DNA of 64,000 nucleotides from contig SVAM01000009.1 in assembly GCA_015059425.1 (NCBI GenBank), positions 3,543 to 67,542 of the forward strand, in the 5' to 3' direction. The notes beneath the pieces were generated by a model that worked only from the letters and a program-made list of their open reading frames with translations, had not been told where the DNA came from and did no database searches. The DNA is from Bacillota bacterium (GTDB lineage Bacteria > Bacillota_I > Bacilli_A > RF39 > UBA660). Each line of letters begins with the position of its first letter. The first letter of the stretch is position 1. A program made the translations under genes and the position numbers. This document shows positions 16,048 through 38,365 of this stretch, one piece after another.

Positions 16048-16068
16048 TATTATGACATGATAAACATC

Positions 16069-17546: not shown

Positions 17547-17575
17547 TTACAAAAGAGTAAGGAAGAATAAAAATT

Positions 17576-17950: not shown

Positions 17951-17955
17951 GGCTA

Positions 17956-18255: not shown

Positions 18256-18295
18256 AAACTTGTTCTATTTGTAATAGGATTCATGATATAAATAT

Positions 18296-18617
18296 TAATT
18301 GTAAAAGACCATATAGGTATAAAAAAAGATGTAGCTCTGATAGATTTAGAAGCACGTATGAAGGGAAACAAAAAAGAGAAGAGATTAAGAAAAGAGATAG
18401 ATACTTGTGTTTAGCTTGTTTAAATAATATTAACAATACAAATCATATGTAAAACTATAAAAACTTACAAGTACATCATATAATTTCTATAGAAGAAGAT
18501 TATGATAAAAGACTTAATAGTACCAATTTAATAACTTTGTGTCCGTGTCATCATAAGATGGCTGAACAAAAAGAAATTAGTTTAGAAGTACTATTAAAAT
18601 TAGTACCAAAAGAATAA
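18296..18617 (+). pseudogene. HNH endonuclease pseudogene (phage-type), interrupted by in-frame stops
   Basis: Translation gives ...RYLCLACLNNINNTNHM*NYKNLQVHHIISIEEDYDKRLNSTNLITLCPCHHKMAEQKEI... The HNH Cys/His pattern is broken by stop codons. Confidence 0.6.
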
Positions 18618-18813
18618 CCCCCCCGGAGGGTAGAAGTGTGAAAATAAAATCTTTTTCTCAACCCACAGCCTACCTACATTCACACAATTATAAATTTTCC
18701 GTGAGTTTTTTGGAAAATGGTATACCAATTGGATACTTAGATAAGAATAGTATAGATTAGTAAAGTATAGTATAGAATATATATATTTCATGTTGATGAA
18801 AAAAAGAATAAGT

Positions 18814-19143
18814 TTAACACTCATACTCAATTCTTTTAATTTCTAAAGGATTTTCATTAGTAATAAGTAATGCATATTTAACACGTAATAACTTATAGAA
18901 TTCTGCTTTTACCTTTTCAGAATCTTCTCCGAAATAATTAATTACATCTTTAGCAGAATTATAATGTTGTAGAAAAGAACCTTTATACATAGAATGCGTA
19001 TAATAGGAATTAGCTATATAATAGGCAATAACTTCAGGTATTATATAATTTTCTAAATATTCGTTATAATTATCTGCAAAAGGTTTAAGTAGTTTTTCAA
19101 ATTCCTCGTTACTAATATCGCCATTAATATTTTCTCTAATCAT
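18814..19143 (-). CDS. hypothetical protein
   Basis: ORF with ggaggtg RBS; no recognisable motifs. Divergent from the 19379 operon. Confidence 0.45.
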   Translation of the reverse strand: MIRENINGDISNEEFEKLLKPFADNYNEYLENYIIPEVIAYYIANSYYTHSMYKGSFLQHYNSAKDVINYFGEDSEKVKAEFYKLLRVKYALLITNENPLEIKRIEYEC

Positions 19144-19326
19144 ATACACCTCCAGTTGATTGTATTAATCACTTAATTATTCTATTATTGCAAGATTTAA
19201 TTTGGAAATTAAAAAAATTTATAATAAAAGTGATATAAAACTATGAAATATATAATAAAAATTTATTTTTTAAACAGCAATTTATACAAAATGAAGTACT
19301 ACATTTTAAAAATATAGTACAAATAT

Positions 19327-19355
19327 TTGACAAATATGTTGAAAAGATGTAATAT
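19327..19355 (+). promoter_or_regulatory. near-consensus sigma-A promoter of the 4-gene operon
   Basis: TTGACA (19327-19332) - 17 nt - TAATAT (19350-19355). RBS aaagaggg precedes the ATG at 19379. Confidence 0.6.
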
Positions 19356-19378
19356 AGTCGTAGAAAGAGGGCGTTATT

Positions 19379-19597
19379 ATGAATGAAAAAGAAGAAAGGT
19401 TTATAAGGATTGCTGAAAAAAGGACAAATAAAATATTGGAACAGATAAGATTGTTAAGTAATTGTTCAAATAAAAATAATTATTCTTATGATGATCAACA
19501 AGTTGATAAAATTTTTAAAGCTATTGAGAAAGAGTTAGATTTGGCTAAAAAGAAATATATAATGAATAAAGATAAAAATAAATTTAGTTTGAGGTAA
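19379..19597 (+). CDS. small hypothetical protein (72 aa), gene 1 of candidate system
   Basis: Helical, charged. Its stop lies 4 nt before the next start. Confidence 0.5.
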   Translation: MNEKEERFIRIAEKRTNKILEQIRLLSNCSNKNNYSYDDQQVDKIFKAIEKELDLAKKKYIMNKDKNKFSLR

Positions 19598-19601
19598 TGA
19601 T

Positions 19602-20234
19602 ATGAGTGAAATTGATAAATTAAGAAAAATAAAAGAAATAGATTATGACAGATATGTTGATATAAGTAGTTTAGAAAAAATGGCTGCTTATGCTATCAAA
19701 TATTTAGAAGACAATCAAGTGAACACAACTTGGACGAATGTAGTTATAGCTACATATAGTTTGTTTCCAAGAAGATTTGCAATTAGTGAAGATTTTTTAG
19801 ATTTTCCAAATGCTGAAAGAATTAGTAGAACTTTAATGCATCTGGTTCCACCAAAAGGGAGAAACTATGCGATAGGTAGTAGCAAAATTGATTATGCTTT
19901 AACACCACTTGGAAGGGAAGTTGCTAATGAAGTTGAAATTATTATTAATAGAGAGGCTACAATAAAAAACAGAAAACAAGAAGTTATTTCTTCAATTAAA
20001 ACTACACCAATGACAACTTACACTGATGTTAAGAATTCATCAGAATTTAAACAATATTGTGGTAATAATGAATACTCTGTAGATATGATATGGACTTTAT
20101 ACAAAGTAATACCATTTACACAACAAGATAAAATATTAAAAAAATTAGTTAGTGCTTTAAGATTTTCACAGGAATGTGGAGATGTTAAATGTGAAGAATT
20201 TATTAGTAAAATGATAAATTCAATTCAAAAGTAG
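19602..20234 (+). CDS. hypothetical protein (210 aa), gene 2 of candidate system
   Basis: RBS gaggt; no recognisable motifs. Confidence 0.55.
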   Translation: MSEIDKLRKIKEIDYDRYVDISSLEKMAAYAIKYLEDNQVNTTWTNVVIATYSLFPRRFAISEDFLDFPNAERISRTLMHLVPPKGRNYAIGSSKIDYALTPLGREVANEVEIIINREATIKNRKQEVISSIKTTPMTTYTDVKNSSEFKQYCGNNEYSVDMIWTLYKVIPFTQQDKILKKLVSALRFSQECGDVKCEEFISKMINSIQK

Positions 20235-20247
20235 GGAAGTGATTTAT

Positions 20248-22407
20248 ATGACAGATGTACAATCTTTTATTATTGAAGATTCAGCCAGAAAAAAACTCAT
20301 GGATCAAAAAAATATTTTTGGTCAAAATTTTGTAGAAATGCTTGCTGAAATTATTACAAATGCAGATGATAGCTATTCTAGAATAGAAGATAATACTGGA
20401 GATTATTCTCCTAAAAAAATTGATATCTATTTTGACAGAAGAAAAGACGAATTTACTGTAGTTGATTTTGCTGAAGGTATAGGTGAAAATGAATTAATAA
20501 AAATTTTCAGAAAATATGCAGATGATACTTCTAATACGAATGCAACAAATAAGGTGCGTGGCATGTTTGGTAGAGGTGCCACAGACGTTATGATAGAATC
20601 ATCATTAGTTGGTAAAGAAAATTTTTTGATATCGTTTAGGGATGATGAATCCACAAGACTTGTGTTTAAGTTTGACGAAAACAATAATAAAACATTTACC
20701 AGAGACACATTGACTGAAGAAGAAATAAGATTTTTTAGAAATGAATATAACATTACCGAAAATGGAACGATTGTAAGATTTGGTACAGGAAGAAAATATC
20801 CAAAAGATGTTATTGGTGCAATTGAAGATTATTATATGCTAAGATTTATTTTTGATAATGAAAACAGAAAAATAATATTTCATGATTTAAATGAAGAAAC
20901 AGAAAAACAATTACAAAATGATATGTCTTATTTTGATTATTGTGATGTATTGTGTGAGGAATCATTTGATATTAAATATAAAAATTATAAGTTAAAAGCT
21001 AATTTAAAAATAGTAAATAATCCGAACAAAATATCAAATCATTATATTTTGATATATGATGAAAAAAAAGCTGTTTATGATGATTCTAATTTTAACAGAG
21101 CCACAGAAGCAGGAATAGATAAGATTGAAGGTAGACTTGAGATAATTAATTTAACAACATTTGCTAAACAAATGATGAATGAATTTGGAGAAACAATAAT
21201 AACTCCAACTCGTGATGGATTTGAAACGAAAAATGATTTCTATAAAGACTTGAAAAATAAAGTAGACAAATATATTATTAATGCCTGTGCTATGGTATCA
21301 CAATCAACAGAAAAATCTCAATCAGGTTTAAGAGATAGAAAAGAATGGCGCAATTTCTTTAAAGATATTAATAAATATTTTAAAGATGAATTAGATACAA
21401 TTATTGATGGTGGTGAGGGCGATACAATAAAAGAACCTCCAGAAGAAGGTATTAAATTTGCTAGAAACAGTATTCCTGTTAAAATTGGTAAACATTACTT
21501 AATTAAATTATTGATTAATCCTAATTTAATTACTCTAGGAAGTTTAATTCAAATCCAACATGAAGGTGAATATATAACTCTAGCTCAAGATAAAATTATA
21601 TTTACTAATAATGGAGGAGAAGAAGTCCCTTCGGTATTAGTTGATATTCTCGGCTTAGAAAATACACCGGAACAACAATTTATTACTGCACATTGTGGAA
21701 TTTACGAAGCTAATTTATATTATGATGTTAGAGATGAAGAAGTTCACTTGCCAGCATATGGTTTTGATTTTTTTCCAAATGAATTAAGAAAAAAACCAGA
21801 GGTTACTAGAACAGCTACAATGTATGTTGATACTAACAAATTTGAAATAGGATCTATTATTGAAATTGAAAACAATAATAGTGAAATTGAATTAGAATAT
21901 GAGAACATCGTTATAAGCACGGAACAATTAGTAAATGATAATATAGCTAAAATAAGTCTTAATATTTCTGGTGGTATATTAGGTAAAACCTATTATATTA
22001 GTGCTATGTTAAATGCTAGAAAAATTGAATTTCCAATTATAGTACAGGAGAAAGATGATACAACAAATAATAAAACAGGTATTATTAATGATATACTTCC
22101 AAAAGAATCCCCGGTTAACTATGTACAAAGTTACTACGATAATGATAGAAATATAATCATAGTATCAAATAACGTTGCTAATAAACAACAAATCTCAACT
22201 TGGTTAGAAAAGAAAGAATATGCTACTATTGCAGAAAAATTTGCATTCTATAGTATTTTATCAGAAGAGCTTGCTAGAATAATGATAAGAGAAAAAAGTA
22301 GAAAAGATAAAATTGCAATATCATCAGATCCAGATGAGTTTTTCAGAGTAATAAGTGAAGAAAAAGATAAAATGTATAAGATGCTTTTAAAATCTTTTGA
22401 GGAATAG
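20248..22407 (+). CDS. GHKL (HSP90/sacsin/MORC-type) ATPase-domain protein, 719 aa, gene 3 of candidate system
   Basis: Bergerat-fold boxes: N-box EIITNADDSY, G1 DFAEGIG, G2 GMFGRGATD. The C-terminal ~500 aa are uncharacterised. Confidence 0.6.
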   Translation: MTDVQSFIIEDSARKKLMDQKNIFGQNFVEMLAEIITNADDSYSRIEDNTGDYSPKKIDIYFDRRKDEFTVVDFAEGIGENELIKIFRKYADDTSNTNATNKVRGMFGRGATDVMIESSLVGKENFLISFRDDESTRLVFKFDENNNKTFTRDTLTEEEIRFFRNEYNITENGTIVRFGTGRKYPKDVIGAIEDYYMLRFIFDNENRKIIFHDLNEETEKQLQNDMSYFDYCDVLCEESFDIKYKNYKLKANLKIVNNPNKISNHYILIYDEKKAVYDDSNFNRATEAGIDKIEGRLEIINLTTFAKQMMNEFGETIITPTRDGFETKNDFYKDLKNKVDKYIINACAMVSQSTEKSQSGLRDRKEWRNFFKDINKYFKDELDTIIDGGEGDTIKEPPEEGIKFARNSIPVKIGKHYLIKLLINPNLITLGSLIQIQHEGEYITLAQDKIIFTNNGGEEVPSVLVDILGLENTPEQQFITAHCGIYEANLYYDVRDEEVHLPAYGFDFFPNELRKKPEVTRTATMYVDTNKFEIGSIIEIENNNSEIELEYENIVISTEQLVNDNIAKISLNISGGILGKTYYISAMLNARKIEFPIIVQEKDDTTNNKTGIINDILPKESPVNYVQSYYDNDRNIIIVSNNVANKQQISTWLEKKEYATIAEKFAFYSILSEELARIMIREKSRKDKIAISSDPDEFFRVISEEKDKMYKMLLKSFEE

Positions 22408-22411
22408 TAAA

Positions 22412-24175
22412 ATGGTTTTCTATTATTATAATCTAGATACTCTTGTTGAAAGTTATTTTGATAATGTAAGAATTATTAATATTTTACATAATAATGGGAT
22501 TAAAAATTTATATGATTTGTTTGTGTGTGATATTAATGAAGTATTAAACTCAAATGCATGCGGAAATAAAAGTAAGAGTATTATAGAAGAAACTTTTTAT
22601 TATTTACAAGCATTAGCAAGAAATAAATTTGATACTACAAAGATATATGAAAAATATGATTATTTATTAAATGATATGATTATTGTTTCAAGAAATTCAG
22701 ATAACGGAGAATTAAAAACAGAAGTATTATTTAAAAGATTCCTAGAAATATATGAGTTAGAAAAATTATCCCCCAAAGATTTTGTTAATTCAAATATGAT
22801 AATTCAATTTCTTGAGGTTTATGAGGGTAGTGCACCGTTAGATTATATTAGTCAAGAAACATCAAAATTTAAAAATTATAAAGAAGCTTACGCTTATTTA
22901 AATGATATTATTAATAATAATAAAGCCGATAAAGCAAATATTTTTAAAAGATATAATGGTATTTTCGTTGAAAGAGAAACATTAGAAGAAATAGGTAAAG
23001 ATTTTGGTGTAACAAGAGAAAGAATAAGACAAATTAATAAACGTACTACAGAAAAAATATATAACGCACTAGATACTATATATAGAAAAATAAAAAATAC
23101 ATTTGATAAAGCTTATTACATCCCTTTATCAAATCCAATGTTAAGAATATATTGTGAATATTTATATGAAAGAGGTTTTTTAAAACTAGAAAGAATTTTC
23201 GATGAAAAGGTTTATGTTAGAAACGAAGAATTAATAAATATAGTTAATAAAATAGAAATAGCTCTTGAAGAAAATAATGTATATAGTGATGAAATGGATA
23301 GAAATGTTTTAAAACTCTTTGAAAAAAAATATTTAATTAAGGATGGTAAAATCCTAAAGAATAATACGTTAATTAATTATGTTCCAATGGTTCTAGATGA
23401 AATAGGAAGAGCAGTAAATTTAAATAGTGAAAATGATGTTAATCTGATTTATGACATTTTAGAGCGAGAATATAGTGTAACCACAGAATATAAGGATTCA
23501 AGAAATATTGAGAGAGTATTAACAGATACAAGTATATTAATTGATTCAAGGACTTATATTTCCGAAAAATATCAAAAGAAAGCAGATATGACTGAAGTTT
23601 TTGAATACATAGAAAAAAGTGAAGTTACAAATGCTCAAATTATTTATTCAACTTTCATAAAATTATGGAATAATATTGATATATATAGTCATGTGGGTGT
23701 ATATGGATATTTAAAATATTTTTATCCTAATAAATATAATTATGCAGGAAGAAGTTTCCTTATAAATGTAATTGGCAAAAGTACAACTTGGGGGGAGATT
23801 GTAATTGATATGATTAAAGAAAAAAAGGCCCCAGTAACGTTTAACTCGGTTAATGAATTATATCCGGCATTAAATAATATGATATGGATAAATCTTGAAG
23901 CAAACTTTACTGATTTAATATTTTGGGGAGATAATTCATATTATTGCAATAGTATGTTAAAACTTAGTCCTGAAGATATGAGTTTTATTACTATTTATAT
24001 TTATAACAATGGAACAGTTACAGATAAAGATTTATATACTTACATATTAAATAATAAGGAGTATATAATTCACGATAATTATTTACATAGCGAAAAACAA
24101 TTATTAAAATTTATCAAAGTTAAGTTTGATGGGGTTATTAATTATAATTCTGACTTGAGAACTTATTATATATAA
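22412..24175 (+). CDS. protein with RNAP alpha-CTD-like HhH and sigma-70 region-4-like HTH, gene 4 of candidate system
   Basis: N-terminal VRIINILHNNGIKNLYDLFVCDINEVL (alpha-CTD-like). Mid-protein LEEIGKDFGVTRERIRQINKRTTEKIYNAL (sigma70 r4 HTH). Start overlaps the upstream stop. Confidence 0.55.
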   Translation: MVFYYYNLDTLVESYFDNVRIINILHNNGIKNLYDLFVCDINEVLNSNACGNKSKSIIEETFYYLQALARNKFDTTKIYEKYDYLLNDMIIVSRNSDNGELKTEVLFKRFLEIYELEKLSPKDFVNSNMIIQFLEVYEGSAPLDYISQETSKFKNYKEAYAYLNDIINNNKADKANIFKRYNGIFVERETLEEIGKDFGVTRERIRQINKRTTEKIYNALDTIYRKIKNTFDKAYYIPLSNPMLRIYCEYLYERGFLKLERIFDEKVYVRNEELINIVNKIEIALEENNVYSDEMDRNVLKLFEKKYLIKDGKILKNNTLINYVPMVLDEIGRAVNLNSENDVNLIYDILEREYSVTTEYKDSRNIERVLTDTSILIDSRTYISEKYQKKADMTEVFEYIEKSEVTNAQIIYSTFIKLWNNIDIYSHVGVYGYLKYFYPNKYNYAGRSFLINVIGKSTTWGEIVIDMIKEKKAPVTFNSVNELYPALNNMIWINLEANFTDLIFWGDNSYYCNSMLKLSPEDMSFITIYIYNNGTVTDKDLYTYILNNKEYIIHDNYLHSEKQLLKFIKVKFDGVINYNSDLRTYYI

Positions 24176-24190
24176 AAAAGAAGATTTCTA

Positions 24191-25429
24191 TTAATCTTCT
24201 TTTTTTATTATATTTTCAATCTCTTCTCCAATTTTTTCAATAATACCTACAACTAATGCATTACCCATCATAAAATTTCTCTTTTTTTGAGTCATTCCTG
24301 TGTTTGTCCAATTATCAGGAAATCCGTTTATTCTTTCACATTCAATAGGTGTTAATAGTCTTGGCTTTTTTGTTCTTAAATCTTCAATAACATGAGTTGT
24401 TCGGCTAACGCCACCTTCGCTAGTAAGCATTGTTCTAGCTGGAGCATCTAGGTTGTCAGGGAAAGGCATTGCCCCTTCACTATAGTAATAAGGCTCGCCA
24501 TTAGGTTTAACTCTTGGTATTTTTTTGCTTCCTTTTAAAAATATAAATTTTTCGATTTGAACATCAGATAAGAAATATTTTTCTTCAACTTCATTTTCTT
24601 CTCTAATTTTTCTTAATGGATATACTAAATTATAATCAGCTCTTGTTTTTACTGTATATATACCGCCATCAGCCATAATACCTGCATTATAGAATTCGCA
24701 TTTAAACATGTTACTAACTTCTATTAGATCCTTATATTCTTTTATACTTGATTTAGTTATTGCTTCATAAGCATCTTTGATAGGGAATTGTTTTACAAAT
24801 AACCCTTTTTTAAAAATGACATCTCTATCATTTAAGTTTCTCATTTCTTTATAGTAATTGGTAGATTTGTGATATGCAAAAATATAGGTTCTTCTTCTTT
24901 TTTGTGGCAGACCATATTCACCAGCATTTATAACTCTCCATTGAACATCATAGCCGTTTTCATAGAAACTCCTTAATATCATTCCGAAATCTCTTCCCCT
25001 TTGTTTTGCGGGAGAAAGTAATAATCTATCTACGTTTTCTAACAAAACAAATGGAGGTTGCTTAATAGCTAGGATTTCTTCGATAGCCCACCAAAGGACC
25101 CCTTTTTTTCCTTCAATACCTTTGCTATTTGATAATGTTTGCGCTACTGAATAATCTTGGCATGGAAATCCACCAACTAATAAAGTGTGGTCTGGAATTT
25201 CTTTTTTATCAACTTCAAATATATCGACATTGCTAACATCTTTAAAACCAAATCTTGTTCCGTAACAAATATATGCATCTTGAGTTTTAGTAGCAGGTTC
25301 CCATTGATTTGCCCAAACAAATTTCCAATTTCCGTTTTCTTCAACTTTATTATCTATTAATGTAACCTTATTTAATCCGCATCTAAAACCACCAACACCA
25401 GCAAATAGTTCTACACATGTTTTTTTCAT
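24191..25429 (-). CDS. DNA (cytosine-5)-methyltransferase, M.Sau3AI-like
   Basis: 412 aa. Motif I FAGVGGF, motif IV GGFPCQDYS, ENV motif. Same length as M.Sau3AI and adjacent to the Sau3AI-like endonuclease. Confidence 0.85.
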   Translation of the reverse strand: MKKTCVELFAGVGGFRCGLNKVTLIDNKVEENGNWKFVWANQWEPATKTQDAYICYGTRFGFKDVSNVDIFEVDKKEIPDHTLLVGGFPCQDYSVAQTLSNSKGIEGKKGVLWWAIEEILAIKQPPFVLLENVDRLLLSPAKQRGRDFGMILRSFYENGYDVQWRVINAGEYGLPQKRRRTYIFAYHKSTNYYKEMRNLNDRDVIFKKGLFVKQFPIKDAYEAITKSSIKEYKDLIEVSNMFKCEFYNAGIMADGGIYTVKTRADYNLVYPLRKIREENEVEEKYFLSDVQIEKFIFLKGSKKIPRVKPNGEPYYYSEGAMPFPDNLDAPARTMLTSEGGVSRTTHVIEDLRTKKPRLLTPIECERINGFPDNWTNTGMTQKKRNFMMGNALVVGIIEKIGEEIENIIKKED

Positions 25430-25484
25430 TTATATACCTCCTATTTATTGTGAAAAATCGTTATATATATTATAATATAGTTAG

Positions 25485-25541
25485 TTGTAAAGATCAACCA
25501 TGCAATTAGTATTATAACTTAATTTTGTTAAAAGATCAACT
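25485..25541. promoter_or_regulatory. divergent R-M promoter region with two direct repeats containing GATC
   Basis: ttgtAAAGATCAACc (25485-25499) and ttgttAAAAGATCAACt (25526-25541). A third GATC lies at 25583, near the RBS. Confidence 0.4.
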
Positions 25542-25600
25542 TTTCTTAATAATATTTTACTATAAATTTGAAATTAAAACAAGATCGAAAGGAGAATTTT

Positions 25601-26989
25601 GTGAAAAAAGGTAGACATTATTTGGTAGATGAAATTGCTTTTATAGCTCAAACTGCAATTGGAAAATCCTTTAGAGAAATTAGGGATGCAGATATAGTAA
25701 CGCTTGAAGATGATAAAGTTACTAAAGGATCTTTGGGTGGAATAGTGGAGGAGGCATTATTCGGAATTGAAGCTAACGGTGATTCAGCACCAGATTTTAT
25801 TGATGCTGGTGTAGAATTAAAAGTAACTCCTTATAAAAAAAATAAAAATAACACTCTTTCTGCAAAAGAAAGATTAGTATTAAATATAATCGATTACATG
25901 ACTGAATATAAGAATGAATTTTTTTCGAGTCATTTCTGGTATAAAAATAATCTATTAGAAATAATATGGTATCTTCATGAAGATGGTAAAGACAAACTTG
26001 ATTTAAAAATTACTAATGAAATTTTAATGGATTTATCTGAAAGCGAAGACATTAAGCAAATAGAACAAGACTGGTATACGGTTATAACCAAAATAAAAGA
26101 AGGTAAGGCTCATGAAATATCAGAGGGAGATACAATGTATCTTGGGGCTTGTACTAAAGGCGAAAATTCCCTATCATATCGCAGACAACCATTTAGTAAT
26201 ATGATGGCAATGCAAAGAGCATTTTGCTTTAAACAAAGCTATATGACGCAGTTGGTTAGAAAATATATTGGAGATTATTCTAATGTTGAGAAAATATTAA
26301 CAAATACTGAGCAAACATTTGATGAGTTTGTAAATAATGTAGTTAATAAATATAAGGGTAAAACTCAAAGTGAATTAATGGAATTATTTAATATTGAATC
26401 ATCCGCTAAAAATATAAACTCTATTATTGTTAGTCGAATGTTTGGGGTTAAAGGTAGCTTAAATGAAACAGAAGAATTTTTAAAAGCTAACATTATCCCA
26501 AAGACTGTTAGGATAGAAGAAAATGGAAGAATCAAAGAGTCAATGTCTTTTCCAGCTTTTAAGTATATTGAGATAATAAATCAAGAATGGGAAACATCAG
26601 AATTAAGGGAAAGTTTAGAATCGACTAAATATTTATTTTTTGTTTTTAGAATGGATAATAATGAATATGTATTTAAAGGAATTAAATTGTGGAATATGCC
26701 GGAATTAGTAATAGATAATGAAGTTCAAATTATGTGGCAAAAAACCGTTGATATTATAAAGAGTGGTAATATAGTGAAATCTATCACTAATGGTATTAGG
26801 GAAACTAATTTTCCAGGAGTTGCGCAAAATAAAGTGTGTCATGTTAGACCTCACGCAAGAGATGCACAAGATACATATCCATTACCAGTTGTTGATAAAT
26901 TAACTGGATTAACAGATTATACTAAACATTGTTTCTGGTTTAATAGGGGTTATTTAGAAGAAATATTAGAAGAGTATATTAATGAATAA
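25601..26989 (+). CDS. type II restriction endonuclease, Sau3AI family (GATC)
   Basis: GTG start after aaaggaga. Strong similarity recalled from R.Sau3AI: AGVELKVTPYKKNKNNTLSAKERLVLNIIDYM; EGKAHEISEGDTMYLGACTKGENSLSYRRQPFSNMMAMQRAFCFKQSYMTQLVRKYI. Duplicated MutH-like architecture. Confidence 0.8.
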   Translation: MKKGRHYLVDEIAFIAQTAIGKSFREIRDADIVTLEDDKVTKGSLGGIVEEALFGIEANGDSAPDFIDAGVELKVTPYKKNKNNTLSAKERLVLNIIDYMTEYKNEFFSSHFWYKNNLLEIIWYLHEDGKDKLDLKITNEILMDLSESEDIKQIEQDWYTVITKIKEGKAHEISEGDTMYLGACTKGENSLSYRRQPFSNMMAMQRAFCFKQSYMTQLVRKYIGDYSNVEKILTNTEQTFDEFVNNVVNKYKGKTQSELMELFNIESSAKNINSIIVSRMFGVKGSLNETEEFLKANIIPKTVRIEENGRIKESMSFPAFKYIEIINQEWETSELRESLESTKYLFFVFRMDNNEYVFKGIKLWNMPELVIDNEVQIMWQKTVDIIKSGNIVKSITNGIRETNFPGVAQNKVCHVRPHARDAQDTYPLPVVDKLTGLTDYTKHCFWFNRGYLEEILEEYINE

Positions 26990-27102
26990 AATACATTAAT
27001 AAGCTGTAAAACTGGATAAAATTATGATATAATATAAATATGAGAATAGAGCATAATTTCATTTTTAATAATGGAATATGCTTTTTTTGATTGGAGGTAA
27101 CT

Positions 27103-28584
27103 ATGAATAAATTAACTAGAGTTAACGAATATTTAAATGTTTCTGAGAAAGATTTAGAAGAATTGGGTGTTTATAATGGATATGCTAATATAGATTCTGA
27201 ATTATATATTAATCCAAAATTATTAATAGATTGTGAAATAGATGAATTTAAAAATTCTTATAATAAAATTACCAATCATTTTGAAAAAATAATTGAACTT
27301 TTAAGAAAAAGTGAAAAAGCATCAAAAGATGATTTGATGTGGAATCTTGCATTAAAGTTATTTTGTTTTCCTGAACCTAATGGGGTTGCACTGGGTACAT
27401 CTGGATTATCAATAAATGGAAACGGTTTAAGCGGAGAAACAGCAGAGAGTGCATTATTAAAATTAAAAGAAATGATTGATAACGACATAGATGATCCACA
27501 AATTTTTGGGATGTTGGCGCTTATTCAAAAGAATATAGGCGTTGATCGTATAAGTGATATGATAAGCAATATAATATATGATGATTTATTACTTTATACC
27601 GAAAATGTTATACAAAAATTAAATATTACATCTTGTGTTGAAGTAGAATATAATAAAAAACAATATAAAATAAAAATTAGAGAAAATGGTTCAAATTTAA
27701 TACTTATTCCAAAGAAAATATTAAGTAATATTCCACCTTTTGTTGATTATCATTCTATCCAAGATATAATAGATGAAAATGTAAAAATAAAACAACAAAT
27801 TTACGAGATGTTTTATGAGATAAATAAGAAATTAAAAAAGAAAAAAGTTTCTCAAGTAAACATAAAAGATTTAGATAAAGACCAAGTTTATGAGATTATT
27901 AATAAATTTAATTTACATAGAATAATTTTAGATGCAAGTTCTAATATTAATGTAGAACCTTATGATTTTGAAACAGATGTTGAGGGCATTCATAAACCGA
28001 TAGAAAAGATAACAAATTTAATTGCAAAAAAGGAACAACAAGTTTTAGGTAATATTTTAAAAATGAGAAATGAAAATTTTTCTGAGTTAGTAGAAGATTT
28101 AATTAACAATTATAAGTTTATTATTGAAAATAAAGGATTAAATCAAGACTTATATCATAAAGTTCCTACAAAAACAGGTAAATATTATTATAGACCTAAA
28201 CATGAAGGTGTATCTCATCGCTTATTCATTGCTACATTAGAAAATACAAAACAAATTTTTAACTATGATTATACTTACGAACCTAAATCTTCAAACGGAG
28301 AAGTAGATTTTAGATTTTATCGTAATGGTGAAGTTATTGTAGTTGAATTTAAACTAAGTACTAACAAGTTAAAAGATGGATATGATAAACAATTAGTTGA
28401 ATATATGAAAAGAGAAAAGAGTGATAAAGGGTATTATGTGATAATTAAAGTAAAAGATGATAACGCAATTGATAATTTTCTAAAAAATACAAAAATCACA
28501 AATAATAGACCTATTGTAGTAGTAGATGGATTATTAAAATCTAGTCCATCACATTTGCACTCTGAAGAATCGGAGGAAATGTAA
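27103..28584 (+). CDS. hypothetical protein with C-terminal PD-(D/E)xK nuclease-like motif
   Basis: RBS ggaggt. C-terminal GEVDFRFYRNGEVIVVEFKL (D...ExK) followed by QLVEYMK. N-terminal 350 aa unassigned. Confidence 0.5.
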   Translation: MNKLTRVNEYLNVSEKDLEELGVYNGYANIDSELYINPKLLIDCEIDEFKNSYNKITNHFEKIIELLRKSEKASKDDLMWNLALKLFCFPEPNGVALGTSGLSINGNGLSGETAESALLKLKEMIDNDIDDPQIFGMLALIQKNIGVDRISDMISNIIYDDLLLYTENVIQKLNITSCVEVEYNKKQYKIKIRENGSNLILIPKKILSNIPPFVDYHSIQDIIDENVKIKQQIYEMFYEINKKLKKKKVSQVNIKDLDKDQVYEIINKFNLHRIILDASSNINVEPYDFETDVEGIHKPIEKITNLIAKKEQQVLGNILKMRNENFSELVEDLINNYKFIIENKGLNQDLYHKVPTKTGKYYYRPKHEGVSHRLFIATLENTKQIFNYDYTYEPKSSNGEVDFRFYRNGEVIVVEFKLSTNKLKDGYDKQLVEYMKREKSDKGYYVIIKVKDDNAIDNFLKNTKITNNRPIVVVDGLLKSSPSHLHSEESEEM

Positions 28585-28938
28585 ATGAAGAAATTTATGT
28601 TTGATTTAATAGCATCACCATTATCATTGTTTGAAAATCAACTTTACAATTATGTTGCCATGGCAATTATAGGATTTATAGCATTTAAAATAGCTTTTAG
28701 TACGGTTGGAGATTTAGGATTAAGAGGAGAGGCCGGTTCAATAGCCCATTGGATAATAAGATTTTTTGTTTTTGTATTTATATGGTTTATATGTTGTGTG
28801 GCAATTACCTTAATTACATTTATTATTAACAACTGGATTATTATTACGATTAGTGCTATATTGCTATTAGTAATATACACTTTAAAGATATATGCAAATA
28901 AGAATCCAGAAAGCATATTAAACAAAAAAATATTATAG
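28585..28938 (+). CDS. small 3-TM membrane protein, translationally coupled to the upstream nuclease-like gene
   Basis: Stop and start abut (gtaaATG). Three hydrophobic helices. Confidence 0.5.
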   Translation: MKKFMFDLIASPLSLFENQLYNYVAMAIIGFIAFKIAFSTVGDLGLRGEAGSIAHWIIRFFVFVFIWFICCVAITLITFIINNWIIITISAILLLVIYTLKIYANKNPESILNKKIL

Positions 28939-29090
28939 GAACCGTTTTGAATGTAGATTTTTATGTCAGGAACCACATAGGAACCGATATACTAATTTAT
29001 AGGGGTATTAGTCAACAAAAGTAGGATAAATTAGTGATGTTTAAAACGAAAATAACATTGCTTAACACACAGAACAATCGTTTGGCTGAG

Positions 29091-29124
29091 CCCCCTGAAG
29101 AGAGCAGAGAGTCTCTCATTTTTG
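29091..29124 (+). repeat. repeat X copy B (15-mer ccccctgaagagagc plus terminator-like hairpin)
   Basis: Exact 15-mer shared with 16117-16131, plus the shared ctctcattttt. Confidence 0.6.
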
Positions 29125-29353
29125 TTTATATTAAAGTTTTTAAAAACACTTAAGATATAAATTTAAAATAAGTTAATATTTTCTATGACAAACTTACTAA
29201 TAATTACATTTTTATCAGTAAATTATTAAAGGTACAAAAGTGCAAATAATGATTTCTAAAGTGCAAAAATTGCACTTTGAAATTTCTTTTTTTATGTATT
29301 AAACTGACAAATAGTAACTTTTTTGTTATAATGTTATTAATGGAGGTGCTAAG

Positions 29354-30202
29354 ATGTCTGAGAGAGAATTAGATTCAAGTATAAACAATTATATTGAAAC
29401 AGAAACACCTAAAAACTATGTAAAACAATTAGCATGGGATATGGCTATTGGACTTCAAGAAGTTGATAACTTAAAACCTTCTAAGTATTTAGAAAAATTG
29501 TTACAAGAAAACGTAACAGGTGAAAAAACAATTTATGAAGTTGAACATGAATTAAAGCAATATTATGTAGAAAAAGATAAAACAGATAAAACAATTCAAG
29601 ATGAATTTGAATGTGATTTAGTTTCTACTAGAATAGTTCAATTATTGAGTATTGATAATTTTGAACTATCAGTAGACTATATAAAATATATTCATGAATA
29701 TTTATTTAAAGATATTTATGAATTTGCAGGTGAATTTAGAAAAATAGATTTTTCTAAACATGAAAGAATATTAAATAATGATTCAGTTGCATACGGAGAT
29801 TGTAAATTATTAGAACAATCATTAGATTATGATATATCATTAGAAAAAACTAAAAATTATAGTGAAATGAACATAGTTGATGTAATTAATAATATAACTA
29901 ATTTTACTTCAAATATATGGCAAATACATCCGTTTAGAGAAGGCAATACTAGAACTACTGCATTATTTATAGAAAAGTATTTAATATCACTTGGATATGA
30001 TGTAGATAACACTATGTTCAAAGAAAAATCTGTATATTATAGAAATGCATTAGTAAGAAGTAATTATTTTAATAATTATTTAAATATAAAACAAGATAAT
30101 AGTTTCTTAATTAAATTTTATGAAAATTTATTATTAGGTAAAAATAATAATTTACATTCAAGAGATTTAATTATAGAAGAATTATTTAATAAAGAAAATT
30201 AA
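29354..30202 (+). CDS. Fic/DOC-family protein
   Basis: Fic motif HPFREGNTRTTAL. Confidence 0.8.
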   Translation: MSERELDSSINNYIETETPKNYVKQLAWDMAIGLQEVDNLKPSKYLEKLLQENVTGEKTIYEVEHELKQYYVEKDKTDKTIQDEFECDLVSTRIVQLLSIDNFELSVDYIKYIHEYLFKDIYEFAGEFRKIDFSKHERILNNDSVAYGDCKLLEQSLDYDISLEKTKNYSEMNIVDVINNITNFTSNIWQIHPFREGNTRTTALFIEKYLISLGYDVDNTMFKEKSVYYRNALVRSNYFNNYLNIKQDNSFLIKFYENLLLGKNNNLHSRDLIIEELFNKEN

Positions 30203-30381
30203 AAGAGGTGCCAGTACAGGCTTATTAATTTAATAAGTTTTTGTATTGGTGTTTTTATTAAAAATAACTAATTTAAAGGTAAAAAAAAGGATCAAGAAAA
30301 ATTAATTGTTTTATTAGAATTGTAAATGAATAATAAAAACATAAAACACTCTATCAAACAACAAAAAGAAAGGAAATTACT

Positions 30382-30900
30382 ATGGATAAAGATATTAAAC
30401 CATATAAACAAAGAGGCGAGACTTGTGCCATAGCGTGTTTAATGATGGCTTTAGAATATTATAAAAAGATTGAAAAAGCTAATTGGTATGTAAATTTATC
30501 TAAAAAAGGTTTAAATACAACAATATATCATTCAGAAAAAGATTGTTTTACAAACAAAAATAAAGCATTATCTGATTTAGATTTTGAGTATGCGATGAAA
30601 GAATATAAAGAATATTTGAATATTGCTAAATCATTAGGTACAGAAATAAAAAATGGCATAATTATAAACACAGAGTTAATAAAAGAAGAATTGAAAAAAG
30701 ATAATTTAGTTATTTTAGCAGGAAAATTGTCAGGTGGATATCACGCAATTCTAATTTCAGGATATGATAATAATAAATTCATAGTTTGTGACCCTCTTTA
30801 CAAAAATAAACAAGAAAAAACAGAAACAGAATTAGAAAAATTTATGAATACAGGAATTGGTAAATGGTTTATTAGTGTAAACAATAAAAAAGTATATTAG
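30382..30900 (+). CDS. papain-like Cys peptidase (C39-like / BtrH-like)
   Basis: Catalytic Cys in QRGETCAIACLMMALEYY; His in GGYHAILISGYD. Confidence 0.55.
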   Translation: MDKDIKPYKQRGETCAIACLMMALEYYKKIEKANWYVNLSKKGLNTTIYHSEKDCFTNKNKALSDLDFEYAMKEYKEYLNIAKSLGTEIKNGIIINTELIKEELKKDNLVILAGKLSGGYHAILISGYDNNKFIVCDPLYKNKQEKTETELEKFMNTGIGKWFISVNNKKVY

Positions 30901-30920
30901 AAATAAAAAATAGGTGAATT

Positions 30921-31460
30921 ATGAAAAAATTATATATTGTCCGTCATGGTCAAACTGATTGGAATGTACAAAAATTATTACAAGGTAAAACAGACATAGA
31001 ATTAAATGAAGAAGGAATTAAACAAGCTAAAGAATTAGCTAAAGTAATAGACTTAGATAAAATAGATATTTGTATTTGCTCCCCTTTAAAAAGAACTAGA
31101 AAAACAGCTGAACTAATTGTAGGTGATAAAGTACCTATTGTTTATGATGAATTAGTTCTTGAAAGAGATTTTGGCAATTATGAAGGGAACCCTATTATAT
31201 TTGATTTAATTGCTAAACAATGGGACTACAAAATAAATGATAGAGAAGAAGGCATAGAACCAGTACAAGATTGTTTAAAAAGAGCAAAGAAATTTTTAAA
31301 TAAAATTAATAATGAATATAAAAATAAAAATATATTAATAGTCTCACATGGAAGCTTTATTAAAGCATTACACTTTAATTTAATAGGATACAATGAGAAT
31401 ACTGATTTATTATCATTTAATCCTAAAAATGCATTGATTTATGAATACGAAATAGAATAA
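30921..31460 (+). CDS. histidine phosphatase (phosphoglycerate mutase-like) family protein
   Basis: RHG motif in LYIVRHGQTDWN; C-terminal catalytic His in VSHGSFIKAL. Confidence 0.8.
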   Translation: MKKLYIVRHGQTDWNVQKLLQGKTDIELNEEGIKQAKELAKVIDLDKIDICICSPLKRTRKTAELIVGDKVPIVYDELVLERDFGNYEGNPIIFDLIAKQWDYKINDREEGIEPVQDCLKRAKKFLNKINNEYKNKNILIVSHGSFIKALHFNLIGYNENTDLLSFNPKNALIYEYEIE

Positions 31461-31554
31461 TTATGGGCCTGTAACATTATCGCATTAATTAAAAGATTTT
31501 AATATAATTTAAATTTAACTTTAAAATCTGTTATAATTAACTTAGGTGATAAAA

Positions 31555-31944
31555 ATGATAAAAGTAGTCGCAGCATTAATAGAAAAAGATGATAAAATTC
31601 TTATTGCCAAACGTTCTACTGGAGATGAATATGTATTTGGTAAATGGGAATTTCCTGGCGGCAAAGTAGAACCCAATGAAAGTGAATTAACTGCTATAGA
31701 AAGAGAAATATTAGAAGAGTTTGAACTAAAAGTTAAAGCTAAAGAATTTATAACAAATAATGTTTGTATTTATCCTACAAAAACAGTTGATTTAAGATTA
31801 TATAGATGTGATTATATAAATGGAGAATTTAAGTTACATGATCATTCAGAATATAAATGGGTTAAGAAAGAAGAAATAATGAATTATGATTTAGCACCTG
31901 CTGATATACCACTTGCAAATTATATTAGAACACAAAACAATTAA
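31555..31944 (+). CDS. NUDIX hydrolase (MutT-like)
   Basis: Nudix box GKWEFPGGKVEPNESELTAIEREILEEFEL. Confidence 0.8.
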   Translation: MIKVVAALIEKDDKILIAKRSTGDEYVFGKWEFPGGKVEPNESELTAIEREILEEFELKVKAKEFITNNVCIYPTKTVDLRLYRCDYINGEFKLHDHSEYKWVKKEEIMNYDLAPADIPLANYIRTQNN

Positions 31945-32008
31945 CTACCAAATGGTAGTTTTTTTTACAAAATAAAATTTTGTGTTATAATATATCGCAG
32001 GTGGTTTT

Positions 32009-33844
32009 ATGTCTAAGGAGACATTTAGTGAAAAAATAAGTGAATCAATGTATAGAAAAACAAAAGCTATTGAGTATATTTACCCTAATATATTTTTAGA
32101 ACATGACGATAATTTTGAAATAGCATTATGTTTAGCATACATGACGCTATCAAAAGAAAAGATAATAGATAAAGATATAAAGAGTAAAGATAGATTAGCA
32201 AGATTAACCGAGCATGTAGATATGTCGGAAATTAATAAACTATTTACTCCAGGCTTTGCCATTGAAATGCCAAATATAATATTTGCTAAAGAAAATAATT
32301 ATTTATGGATTTTAGATAATATTAGAGATTCTATAATGCATGGTGTATTTGATATAGATGAAGAAAGAAAATGTTTCATAATTAATAACACCCAATTTGA
32401 TAGAGAGCTAAGTGCTGAAATACCTTTTTCTTGGTTTATCGCATATGCAAAAAACGATATATTAAGTAAAAAAACTACAGATAAATATACAATAAAAGGT
32501 TTTTATTATAATAAAAATAAAAGTAATAAAAGAAATTTAGAAACGAAAAAAGAACTAGTATCTAACATTTTGTATAGAGTAAATATAACTGGTACATCAT
32601 TCAATAATAAAAAGATAAAAACTAGAATAATTGAACTATTTGAATTATATTCTAAGAGTGATATAAGTAATGAAGATGTTGAAAAGTATAGAAGCAATAT
32701 AGAAAAAGAAATAATTAAATATAATGAGAAATATTTAGTATCATTTTATATAGCACGAGAAGAAATAAAAAAAGTTGTTGAAAAAGAATTCCCTGGAGTA
32801 ACAATTGATATTATATTGGATAACAGGAAATATCGATTTATTAATAAAACTTTAAAAAGATTACCTAAAAACTATACAGATTATGATTTAATGTATAATT
32901 CATTTAACAAAGAAGCATCACCTAAAGGTATGATGCTACTAGAATATTTAACTAATATAATTGAGGCTTTAGATAATAAAGATATAAAAGAATTAAGTAT
33001 TAATGAAGGCTATAATGAAAGAATTAAATTATTTAATTTTATATTAAATGGAGATAACATAGACTACAATAATATTAAAAATAAAAATATGCTTTTAGAA
33101 CAAAATTTAAATATATTAAGATCAATATGTTTAAATGTATATGGTTTAGCAACTCTTGTTATCAATCATGAAACATTATATAACAATCATTTCTTAAATG
33201 AACATCCATCAAAATATAATATTAAAGCTTGTATAAAAAGACCTTTTATTGAATATGTAACAAAAAGAAAAAGTTTATTACTAAAAATACTAGAAATAGA
33301 TTTAAGACTTTTTGAAAAAAACGAACAATATAGTAAATGTCAAAATGAAACAGGTAAACAAAAGATACAATCAACTATTAATGCTTTAAATAATGTTAAA
33401 CTAACTTATCAAAATGAATTAGCTAATTTACAAACAATAACTGGCTATGAGCCAGTATTAGTAGGAGATGTAAATTACGAAAAAAAACAAGAATTAGAAA
33501 ATATAATAAGAGTTTATTTTAATCATTTTTATAATGCTCAAACTATAGAAGTAAAGAAAAAAATATATAAAATAATTAATAATCTATTAACAAAACAAAT
33601 AGAAGAAGAATCAAAATATACATTTAGTCAATGTAGTAATATGAAAGATGTTTTAGAAATAATTAGAAATAGTTTTTCACACATAGGAAGAATAAGAATG
33701 AAAAAAAATAGAGGAACTAATACTATTATTAAATTAAATGATTATGACAACAATAATGAAAAGAGTGGAGAAGTAAACTGTGAATATATGGATTTGATAC
33801 AAGTCTTAAATGCTCCTTATAATCAAGAAGAAATAAAAAGATGA
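32009..33844 (+). CDS. 611-aa hypothetical protein with two HEPN-like R(N/D)xxxH motifs
   Basis: NIRDSIMHG (near aa 103-111) and IRNSFSHIG (near aa 553-561). Extended -10 promoter ttgtgttataat upstream. Confidence 0.5.
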   Translation: MSKETFSEKISESMYRKTKAIEYIYPNIFLEHDDNFEIALCLAYMTLSKEKIIDKDIKSKDRLARLTEHVDMSEINKLFTPGFAIEMPNIIFAKENNYLWILDNIRDSIMHGVFDIDEERKCFIINNTQFDRELSAEIPFSWFIAYAKNDILSKKTTDKYTIKGFYYNKNKSNKRNLETKKELVSNILYRVNITGTSFNNKKIKTRIIELFELYSKSDISNEDVEKYRSNIEKEIIKYNEKYLVSFYIAREEIKKVVEKEFPGVTIDIILDNRKYRFINKTLKRLPKNYTDYDLMYNSFNKEASPKGMMLLEYLTNIIEALDNKDIKELSINEGYNERIKLFNFILNGDNIDYNNIKNKNMLLEQNLNILRSICLNVYGLATLVINHETLYNNHFLNEHPSKYNIKACIKRPFIEYVTKRKSLLLKILEIDLRLFEKNEQYSKCQNETGKQKIQSTINALNNVKLTYQNELANLQTITGYEPVLVGDVNYEKKQELENIIRVYFNHFYNAQTIEVKKKIYKIINNLLTKQIEEESKYTFSQCSNMKDVLEIIRNSFSHIGRIRMKKNRGTNTIIKLNDYDNNNEKSGEVNCEYMDLIQVLNAPYNQEEIKR

Positions 33845-33870
33845 ACATAATAATCGTTCATCTATTTTTG
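33842..33870. terminator. bidirectional terminator
   Basis: gatgaac-ataataatc-gttcatc followed by a T-tract. Confidence 0.55.
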
Positions 33871-34611
33871 TTCATAAAAGTTTTCAATCGAAATTAAAGC
33901 TCTTTTAATTCTATCTGTAGTAAAAGGTTTATTTAAAACATCTAGTATTGGATAAGTAAAAGCTTTTTTTATAGTTTCTTCTGAATCATCACCAGTGATA
34001 ATAATTACTGGTATTTTTTCTATTAATTCATTTTCTTTTAAATAAGATAATACTTCAAAACCATTTTTAGTAGGCATATTAATATCTAAAAATAATGCAT
34101 ATATATCATTTAATTTAATATGTTTAATAGCGTCTCTACCATCATTGGCTCTAAGTATATTATAATCGTCATTTATATTATCTTGCATAAAGTTAATCAT
34201 AATATTTGAATCATCCGCAATAATTATATTTTTTTTAATAACATCTGTTTCTGTACTATTGAAATATTCATTTAAAAGCTTTTCTATTTTAGAAATAGTA
34301 TTTTTTAAATCATCAAAGTTATTATTTATAAAATCTATATCGTTTGCTTTTCCTTTTAATTCATGTTCATAAAATACTTCAGCATCTTTCATAAAACCTA
34401 AGTATTTAGCTTCACTTTTAATACTATGAGCAATAATAGCATAATTACTACAATCTTTATTATTTTTATAATATTCCAAGTTTTCAAGTTTTTCTTTAAA
34501 TGAATCTTTAAATTCTTTTAAACTTTCTTCATATGATTCCATATCTCCCCAAAACTCTAAACTCTCATTCACTAAAACATTATTTTTAATTAATAAATCT
34601 ACTTTTCCCAT
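33862..34611 (-). CDS. HPt plus receiver-domain phosphorelay protein
   Basis: HPt-like AHSIKSEAKYLGF. REC domain with DD pair and phospho-acceptor in FLDINMP. No output domain. Confidence 0.7.
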   Translation of the reverse strand: MGKVDLLIKNNVLVNESLEFWGDMESYEESLKEFKDSFKEKLENLEYYKNNKDCSNYAIIAHSIKSEAKYLGFMKDAEVFYEHELKGKANDIDFINNNFDDLKNTISKIEKLLNEYFNSTETDVIKKNIIIADDSNIMINFMQDNINDDYNILRANDGRDAIKHIKLNDIYALFLDINMPTKNGFEVLSYLKENELIEKIPVIIITGDDSEETIKKAFTYPILDVLNKPFTTDRIKRALISIENFYEQK

Positions 34612-34614
34612 TTT

Positions 34615-36441
34615 TTATTTTCCTCCTAAATGTTTATTTAGTACTTTATTTAATTGATATCTATCAATAGGTTTTGATAAATAATCATCAAATCCAGCAT
34701 TTAAATATTTTTCATCTTGACCTTCAATTGCATCGGCAGTTAAAGCAATAACCGGTATATCAAAACCTTCATGTTCTTTTAATCTTCTAAGTGTTTCGAT
34801 ACCATTCATCTTAGGCATCATAATATCCATAAAAATCAAATCAAAAGTACTAGTTTCACATTTTTCTAAAGCTTCATAACCACTTTCTGCTAAAACAATA
34901 TTAAAGTTGTAAGGTTTTAATATATTTTGAGCAACTTTAAGATTAATTTTAGAATCATCAACAATTAATATTTTCATACCTTTATGTAAAGAGTAATCAA
35001 TTTCTATTTCTTCAGTTTTACTTTCTGGGATTTCCATGCTTATAATATCTTGTTCTAAATATACTCTAAAAGTAGAACCTTCACCATAGTTACTAGCTAC
35101 ATTAATTCTACCACCCATCATTTCGGTTAAACTTTTTGTTATTGCAAGACCTAAACCAGTACCTTCTGAAGTAGTGTTTTTATCTTCATCAAATCTTTGG
35201 AATTTATTAAACAGTTTATCCATATCTTCTTTTTTAATACCACGTCCAGTATCTTTAACTGAAATATTTAGTAAGCATTTATTAGATTCAATTCTATTTA
35301 TACAAGATATGTTAAATACTATTTCACCTTTTTCCGTATATTTAACAGCATTAGTTAAAATATTTAAAATAATTTGTTTTAATTTACCAACATCACCTTT
35401 TAACACTCCAGGCAAATCTTTTGGAACATCCATTTTAAATTGAATATCTTTTGTACCAATTCTAGGTACTACAAGTTTTTGTAGTGAATTAAATACTTCT
35501 CTAGGATTATATTCTACAGAAACTATATCCATTCTATTAGCTTCTATTTTTGAAATGTCTAAAATACCATTAACTATATCTAATAAGTTATGTGAAGCAT
35601 CAACTATATCTTTAGCAAATCCTTTAGAATCATCATCTAACTTAGGAGCTTCAAGTAGACATTCACTAAAACCTACAATCGCATTTAATGGAGTTCTAAT
35701 TTCATGAGACATATTAGATAAGAATTCTGATTTGGCTTGATTAGCTTTTTCAGCTTGATCTTTAGCTAGATTAAGCTCTTTAATAATTTTTAAATCTGGA
35801 TTTTCAATAGTAAAATACATTATAATAACTACTAAACATAATAGAAAATTTATTAAAAATAAATCAGGAAAAAAGTTTTGAACAAAGAAGTTTACAATCA
35901 TTAAACCAACAAAAGCATATAATGGTTTAGTTTTATTTTTAGCAATATTTTTTCTATATCTAATCGCAACATATAATGAATAACCTATTAATAAGAATGT
36001 TAAAAGATAAGTTAAATTAACAGATAATCCTTGAGGAACAATTACTCCATCCATTTCTAAAAAGTTAACTGGAAGTATTAATATAAAGGGAACAAATATA
36101 ACAAAAAGAAATAAAAACACATAAAAAGTATTAGTTAACATTTTAGTTTTATTCTTTTTAGATACACTAATAGATTTTATATAGAAGGAAAATAATAAAA
36201 CCCATGATACAAAATAAACAAATACTAGTTTTGAAGTAATCATATAAATAAAATCTTTATAATCAAATCCACAATTATATAAGACAGATGTTAATATATC
36301 TAAAGATAAACCTACAGTAGTTAAAATAAGTAAAAGCTTATATATGGAAGTTTCAATATTTTTAACTCTTTCTTTAGAAAAAAATACAATCATCAAAATA
36401 ATAATAAAACAAAGCCCACTAATTGAAAAATATAACCCCAT
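34615..36441 (-). CDS. hybrid sensor histidine kinase (TM sensor, HisKA, HATPase, C-terminal REC)
   Basis: H-box [14 protein letters not shown]; N/G boxes; C-terminal receiver [14 protein letters not shown]...[11 protein letters not shown]. Confidence 0.85.
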
Positions 36442-36510
36442 ATTTACACATCCTTACTATTATCTAAATTTTAACACATATAACAATCATTTTCAATTAA
36501 AAAAGAGACA

Positions 36511-38283: not shown

Positions 38284-38365
38284 AAATACCTCCCTGTATA
38301 TAAATATTATAAATTAATGAATATTTTAAAGTCAAACAAAATAACAAACTTTTATTAAAAAGTAC

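Follow-up and report, generated by a model that had tools for sequence, protein, structure and literature searches.

In a 64-kb stretch of Bacillota DNA (~25% G+C; "the window" means this whole stretch), two adjacent plus-strand genes, A (open reading frame (ORF) 27103-28584) and B (ORF 28585-28938), had been proposed from the sequence alone to form a translationally coupled pair, with a nuclease and a small membrane protein laid out as in abortive-infection and toxin-effector modules. We favor a different explanation, with somewhat better than even confidence: A is independent cargo encoding a stand-alone antiviral nuclease, and B is the terminal gene of the surrounding element and not the partner of A. 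By sequence comparison, an integrative element of about 13 kb, now decayed, is situated behind recG (roughly 16132-29090), and both genes are at its right end. From the sequences and a structural model we infer the nuclease activity of A, its role in defense, sensing by its N-terminal part, and the function of B.

Gene A and its homologues

The sequence-only reading pointed to a PD-(D/E)xK motif at the C-terminus of A, and this assignment held up: GEVDFRF...VVEFKL...QLVEYMK supplies D402, E415-x-K417 and Q430xxxY434. In an alignment of 29 A homologues, E368, E415, K417, Q430 and Y434 are invariant, and position 402 is D or E throughout. The order of these motifs, acidic...ExK...QxxxY, is the Cas4/RecB-type PD-(D/E)xK pattern. 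In the predicted model of A (predicted local distance difference test score, pLDDT, 86; predicted template modeling score, pTM, 0.82), the core runs alpha-beta-beta-beta-alpha-beta, with an acidic residue ending beta-2 and the (D/E)xK motif on beta-3, as expected of a PD-(D/E)xK core fold; QxxxY, a Cas4/RecB-like feature, is placed on the helix that follows the ExK strand. In agreement, a profile search of PDB aligned the motifs of A with those of the Cas4 structure 4r5q (E 0.021), Q430xxxY434 falling opposite 'QLQIY'. The nuclease core is thus supported by both the model and the Cas4 alignment. We found no cysteine in residues 345-493, which argues that the domain lacks a Cas4-type iron-sulfur (Fe-S) cluster. 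Scanning A locally against Pfam and NCBIfam returned a sub-threshold Mrr_cat match only (E 0.015, residues 390-461), and scanning it against PADLOC returned a weak Cas4_II match (E 1.6e-5, residues 357-436, 80 residues). Taken together, the sequence motifs and the model identify the C-terminal domain of A as a predicted PD-(D/E)xK nuclease fold of the Cas4/RecB type.

A search of a large protein database yielded 34 A clusters with 23-98% identity. The local Pfam copy does not contain the DUF8370 and DUF8371 models; the family was assigned via precomputed hits on these homologues: all 34, one of them 98% identical to A, carry PF28123 and/or PF28130, and both are present in 33. A profile built from 29 A-family sequences matched 3,862 representative clusters (50% identity) at E <= 0.001, of which 877 reach E <= 1e-30. 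Among the 3,862 matches, the 150 that rank highest are all full length (457-575 aa), indicating that DUF8370/DUF8371 is, as judged from these sequences, a large family of fixed architecture. A is a fresh member of this family, which has been catalogued without an assigned function, and a literature search with the DUF names and protein accessions found no main-text mention.

The contexts of A homologues consistently consist of defense genes and mobile elements, and neither A nor B was seen in a metabolic context among the loci examined. Family-wide, the neighbors include restriction-modification (R-M) systems, Mrr, GmrSD, a Schlafen-like helicase, AGS_C/caspase, RloB/AAA_21, an OLD-type ATPase, HsdR, DpnI, SIR2 and AbiE. 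The A gene is accompanied by DpnII R-M and Mrr genes in locus L001, by Dcm/NgoFVII/Dam genes in L003-6, by a Schlafen-like helicase gene in L007, and by AGS_C and caspase genes in L014; in L011-13 it lies with AlwI R-M and Fic genes, and HTH_36 and serine recombinase genes come next. A distant homologue is found with methylases and GmrSD in L016 and with RloB/AAA_21 in L017. We gathered 80 metagenomic A loci, 67 of which had sufficient downstream sequence for the next gene to be judged. The next genes sampled among metagenomic loci encode an OLD-type ATPase-TOPRIM protein, HsdR, a protein kinase, Schlafen/AlbA_2, DpnI, an MtlR-like protein and Hypoth_Ymh. A B homologue (by tblastn) was found in none of the 67, and neither was a small next ORF with at least two transmembrane segments. 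On proteobacterial plasmids (Rhodobacter, Legionella, Nitrosospira), the A homologue is solitary and labelled 'hypothetical protein', and its neighbors are SIR2, DUF3427, GIY-YIG, type I/IIG R-M or AbiE genes, or an integrase with toxin-antitoxin genes.

Rousset et al. 2022 (PMC9122126) identified the psu-int hotspot of P4-like satellites as a reservoir of antiviral systems, and the supplementary table of that study contains WP_089584712 as a lone 'hypothetical' hotspot occupant. This 480-aa protein of Escherichia coli KMi029 is an A homologue (29% identity, E 2e-53) that retains all motifs, and it is encoded by the sole gene in the int-psu interval of a P4-like satellite at ssrA, where the gene order is ssrA, integrase, A homologue, psu, delta-like gene, ... 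primase-helicase. The gene is carried by 14 of 5,426 complete E. coli genomes, in one of which the RefSeq label is 'DUF8370 family protein'. Among IMG/VR relatives of A, two of the three examined (L038 and L039) directly follow an integrase gene, with a psu gene nearby.

In the explanation that we favor, A would act alone, as the single-polypeptide cargo of a defense slot. Its N-terminal helical domain of ~340 aa, the presumed sensor or DNA-recognition part, bears a conserved, pocket-like set of motifs comprising the invariant residues E91, G98, G106 and G146-x-D148-R149-x-S151-D152 (IGVDRISDM). This domain would recognize either a phage cue or some feature of the incoming DNA, and DNA would then be cut by the C-terminal Cas4/RecB-type domain, a logic resembling that of Shedu or of type IV restriction enzymes. 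Within this explanation, we consider a modification-dependent, type IV-like mode of action unlikely. The solitary layout is compatible with such a mode; the Mrr_cat match is below the cut-off, and no known reader domain was matched by the N-terminal domain. On this evidence, A is a reasonable candidate for a single-gene defense system.

Gene B and the right end of the element

The prior description of B as a small membrane protein with three transmembrane segments was borne out by hydrophobic segments at about residues 22-42, 55-79 and 84-103, and the K/R-rich C-terminal tail suggests that the C-terminus faces the cytoplasm. Homologues of B form 90-150 database clusters, nearly all of exactly 117 aa, with G51, S52, H55, W56, I58, R59, W67, N83 and N113 invariant. 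These clusters have no Pfam family or name, local Pfam, NCBIfam and PADLOC scans of B returned nothing, and no B homologues were found in IMG/VR, GenBank phages or plasmids. The number of clusters matched by each gene argues that A and B are genuine genes and not chance ORFs.

B homologues (57-87% identity) sit directly 3' of at least seven unrelated defense genes. The gene immediately 5' of B encodes a type II restriction endonuclease (REase) behind two Dcm methylases in L018-22, an AlwI-like REase in L031, HsdR in L035 and L127, a DRT/AbiK-like reverse transcriptase in L025-29, an Abi_alpha protein in L023/24/32, a Schlafen-group-3 helicase in L033/34, and A itself in the window and L030. 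Homology among the B loci begins at the B ribosome-binding site, and in the window, L030, L018-22 and L031 it extends past three GGWACC repeats to CCCCCTGAAG followed by a hairpin and a T-run. A second backbone (Fic ... HTH_36 ... serine recombinase) carries B in L034 and L035 but not in L011, where A fills the last cargo position; the B gene of L127 is flanked by a type I R-M system and a serine recombinase gene. The unrelated upstream genes, the homology shared from the B ribosome-binding site onward and the placement of B in the second backbone together mark B, by sequence comparison, as the border of a swappable cargo slot.

The borders of the element could be traced by a repeat. The note that the pair lies just before a repeat proved correct: CCCCCTGAAGAGAGC follows B and recurs at the left end (Table 1), forming a direct repeat of 15 nt exact and about 35 nt imperfect identity. 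The 10-mer CCCCCTGAAG occurs twice in the window against 0.01 copies expected, and the right-end motif, ~150 nt after B, is also found in L018-22, L030, L031 and L044-46. Just inside both ends is TCAGGAACCAnnTAGGAACC (16211-16230 and 28966-28985); of the 13 GGAACC sites in the window, five are at the two element ends. In L018 and L019 all three right-end copies of this repeat read GTACC, a concerted change. A complete element is seen in L044-46, where a tyrosine integrase, an S24 repressor, HTH_3, Phage_rep_org_N/Phg_2220_C, HNH and, on the other strand, a 109-aa ORF precede the cargo, B and the end motif; an exact k-mer search around this intact element found no flanking repeats. The window shares with it the block of HNH and 111-aa ORF (18125-19173) and B, with 9.4 kb of different cargo between them. 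Elements of the window type were not found in IMG/VR or GenBank phages.

These comparisons suggest that B is the conserved terminal gene between a variable slot for defense cargo and the element end, which beyond B would be formed by an attachment (att) site or, in related elements, by an HTH_36 gene and/or a serine recombinase gene. B, a small membrane protein belonging to the element, probably acts alone; that its role is of the exclusion or lysogenic-conversion type is a guess. The coupling of A to B would then be a by-product of the junction between cargo and backbone, arising because the reading frame of A extends into the conserved segment with the B ribosome-binding site. Consistent with this, A has a longer C-terminal tail (...SEESEEM) than most homologues, and this tail reaches into that segment.

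In related genomes, the stretch behind recG is a hotspot for variable islands (window 12609-16126 and 33871-38293 compared with L001, L023 and L032). The distance from recG to the response-regulator and kinase genes is 17.7 kb in the window versus 7.9 kb in L001, with different content, and L023 and L032 also have islands behind recG.

Alternatives to independent cargo

The pairing of A with B is confined to the nearest relatives of the window, with the pair present in L030 and a B remnant in L001/L002. The L001 and window copies of the A module share 87.6% identity, as against 70-75% for flanking core genes, and A is intact in L001; B there has neither its ATG nor anything past about 125 nt. 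This decay beside an intact A implies, as far as sequence can tell, that B is dispensable for A.

Several observations weigh against the explanation that we favor. The A-B junction, with a gap of 0 and the B ribosome-binding site inside A, has been kept in L030, where A is 97% identical; this retention indicates that A and B have moved together for some time, and they are almost certainly co-transcribed. A distant A homologue (P0030; L016/L017, 29% identity) is also followed by another 117-aa membrane protein, which has an RGEA loop motif in common with B. PADLOC has no model for the A family, and a Foldseek search of A against PDB gave no match at E <= 0.001. Moreover, no remnant of an integrase, repressor or replication gene was found in the element of the window, and its mobility is for this reason inferred from its relatives.

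The membrane protein of the distant locus was considered as a relative of B and rejected (BLASTP E 33; hhalign probability 1.2%). Its ORF in L016 (1781-2134) starts 64 nt after the A homologue and matches B in length and position. L016 and L017 represent one and the same context, and this protein occurs in no other locus.

The best-surviving alternative, which we nevertheless regard as quite improbable, ties A to the adjacent GATC-specific R-M system, either as an accessory or second nuclease sharing its self-protection by methylation or as an enzyme processing restriction products. This link is the most intriguing loose end, as a near-identical A(-B) module comes after Sau3AI-type genes in the window, starting right behind the R gene, and after DpnII genes in L001 and L030, and other A homologues adjoin AlwI (GGATC), DpnI and D12-class methylases. 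However, no R-M or methylase gene is near the homologues in L007, L008, L014, the Nitrosospira plasmid or the E. coli P4-like hotspot, and a DpnI neighbor, which cuts methylated GATC, is incompatible with GATC-methylating neighbors under one self-protection logic. Low-GC Firmicutes often carry GATC systems, so the adjacency may be due to chance.

It is very improbable that A instead serves mobile elements as a nuclease for recombination or replication, that is, as a Cas4/RecB-like exonuclease used for element maintenance or transfer. In keeping with such a role, A carries Cas4/RecB-type motifs, is often located on integrative elements, satellites and plasmids beside integrases, recombinases and relaxases, and has a full-length match in PHROGs to phrog_30194, a phage protein family without known function (E 1e-52); GenBank phages gave no A match. 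On the other hand, A occupies the variable cargo slot and not the backbone, R-M, DRT and Abi genes alternate with it there, P4-like satellites hold it in a hotspot shown to house antiviral systems, and most copies of the same elements lack it.

The least probable alternative, with only a slim chance by our estimate, is the original proposal of a two-gene abortive-infection or toxin-effector module, in which the nuclease would sense or cut and the membrane protein would serve as effector, anchor or immunity partner: it draws on the TAA/ATG junction, where A contains the ribosome-binding site of B and nothing terminator-like was found to separate the genes, on the identical junction in L030 and on the analogous 117-aa ORF of L016/L017, but it is contradicted by the 0/67 metagenomic loci with B or a small multi-transmembrane neighbor, by the lone A genes of the P4-like psu-int hotspot and the solitary ones of plasmids, by the position of B behind at least seven unrelated, self-sufficient defense genes, by the decayed B of L001 and by the lack of detectable relation between the L016 protein and B. 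Type II REases, HsdR and DRTs are not known to depend on a membrane partner. By the sequence evidence gathered here, A and B as a conserved two-gene system are not supported.

Gene coordinates, neighboring cargo and known systems

The coordinates of A, B and the element are collected in Table 1. A starts most likely at its ATG, behind a GGAGG ribosome-binding site at 27093-27097, since the alternative listed TTG start (27091) overlaps this site; the encoded protein has 493 aa and not 494 aa as first counted. The TAA/ATG junction was confirmed by the ORF positions: the ATG of B abuts the stop codon of A with a gap of 0, and its GGAGG site (28572-28576) lies within the last codons of A. No terminator-like site was found in the A-B interval, the nearest one downstream being that at the right repeat. 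An AT-rich hairpin with a T-run (27040-27090) lies just 5' of the A ribosome-binding site, behind a TGnTATAAT-like sequence. L001 and L030 have this hairpin along with the module. Its stability does not exceed that of shuffled sequence (z = -0.68), and an Rfam scan of 15900-34000 turned up no RNA family. The HNH gene of the backbone lacks a start codon, is interrupted by an in-frame stop and is accordingly regarded as a pseudogene.

Table 1 Features of A, B and the surrounding element in the window
Feature	Position	Strand	Remarks
ORF A	ATG 27103, TAA 28582-28584	+	493 aa; DUF8370/DUF8371 family; candidate stand-alone defense nuclease
A N-terminal region, mostly helical	27103-28128	+	residues 1-342; no solved-structure match
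A C-terminal domain, predicted PD-(D/E)xK nuclease	28189-28584	+	residues ~363-493; E368, D402, E415-x-K417, Q430xxxY434
ORF B	28585-28938	+	117 aa, three hydrophobic segments; final gene before element right end
Left direct repeat, putative attL	16115-16151 (core 16117-16131)	+	recG terminator region; homology with syntenic L001 breaks here
TCAGGAACCATTTAGGAACC, two GGAACC repeats	16211-16230	+	just inside left end
HNH gene remnant, element backbone	18252-18614	+	68% identical to intact L045 copy
111-aa backbone ORF	18814-19149	-	left border of cargo; common to L018-22, L031, L044-46
Sau3AI-type R-M cargo	24191-26989		C5 methylase 24191-25429 (-), MutH/Sau3AI-like REase 25568-26989 (+); directly upstream of A
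Three GGAACC repeats	28938-28985 (28938, 28969, 28980)	+	after/overlapping B stop; proposed arm-type recombinase sites, right end
Right direct repeat, putative attR	29089-29125 (core CCCCCTGAAGAGAGC, 29091-29105)	+	terminator-like hairpin 29100-29117 and T-run

As had been stated, the two genes lie downstream of a Sau3AI-type R-M system. The A(-B) module (88-95% DNA identity) follows this system in the window and a DpnII R-M system in L030 (333-2936) and L001 (5337-7909), which is a swap of two unrelated systems, both GATC-recognizing judging by their family names. A Schlafen-group-3 helicase gene is shared by L007 (6055-9416) and L034 (4028-6351) with 74% DNA identity; the next gene is an A homologue in L007 and a B homologue in L034, illustrating that the cargo slots are mosaic.

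Further left, the cargo at 19379-24175 consists of four co-oriented genes, encoding a 72-aa ORF, a 210-aa ORF, a 722-aa GHKL/HATPase_c_3 protein and a 592-aa protein whose match is limited to the sigma-70 region 4 part of MzaA. The 210-aa, 722-aa and 592-aa proteins gave no PADLOC system match, and the 72-aa ORF was not scanned; this cargo may be an uncharacterized multi-gene defense cassette. To the right of the element, a Fic-domain gene (29354-30202) has 79-81% DNA identity to the Fic genes in the serine-recombinase elements of L011-13 and L034 and, by this identity, appears as a recurring module of these islands. A 611-aa ORF (32009-33844), in a second variable segment right of the element, gave no Pfam or PADLOC match and a weak, sub-threshold match in NCBIfam only.

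Joining these strands gives a broader reading, for which we estimate somewhat less than an even chance: DUF8370/DUF8371 would be a single-gene anti-phage system, ranging from low-GC gut Firmicutes to P4-like satellites of E. coli, in which the GxDRxSD N-terminal domain is a new kind of sensor controlling a Cas4-like nuclease, and the B family would mark the edge of swappable slots for defense cargo across several element backbones and would have a separate exclusion function. If this is true, the anti-phage repertoire gains a widespread nuclease (the 3,862 clusters noted above) with an unfamiliar sensor domain, and the E. coli homologue, being already in a validated hotspot, makes the proposal easily testable. 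The B-att frame offers a handle for mining defense cargo in little-studied gut Firmicutes. These genes also carry a warning, in that a tightly coupled pair in a defense island can be an accident of the junction between cargo and backbone and not a system.

Among known systems, A belongs with the Pfam families DUF8370/DUF8371 (PF28123/PF28130), with which it shares length and two-part architecture without difference. Its motifs align one for one with those of Cas4/RecB-like nucleases (4r5q); in contrast to Cas4, it has neither cysteines nor the Fe-S cluster, no CRISPR context, an extra N-terminal domain of 340 aa, and scores below the family thresholds. One gene encoding a sensor at the N-terminus and a PD-(D/E)xK domain at the C-terminus is the layout of Shedu SduA, Mrr-type type IV enzymes and Can2/Card1. 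However, A matches no Shedu or Mrr model of PADLOC, and its N-terminal domain is unrelated to CARF, DUF4263 N-domains and winged-helix domains. Assignment of A to Shedu (SduA, DUF4263) was rejected, no match to the SduA/DUF4263 models having been obtained, as was its assignment as a type II REase, there being no methyltransferase neighbor in the P4-like hotspot, the Nitrosospira plasmid, L007, L008 or L014. As for the element, its backbone differs from that of P4, belonging to a low-GC Firmicute, with the tyrosine integrase, S24 repressor and Phage_rep_org_N of its intact relatives, and being decayed here. Nevertheless, like the P4 psu-int hotspot, it is a conserved frame (HNH/111-aa ORF ... 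B-att) around swappable defense cargo, and in E. coli A homologues occupy that very site.

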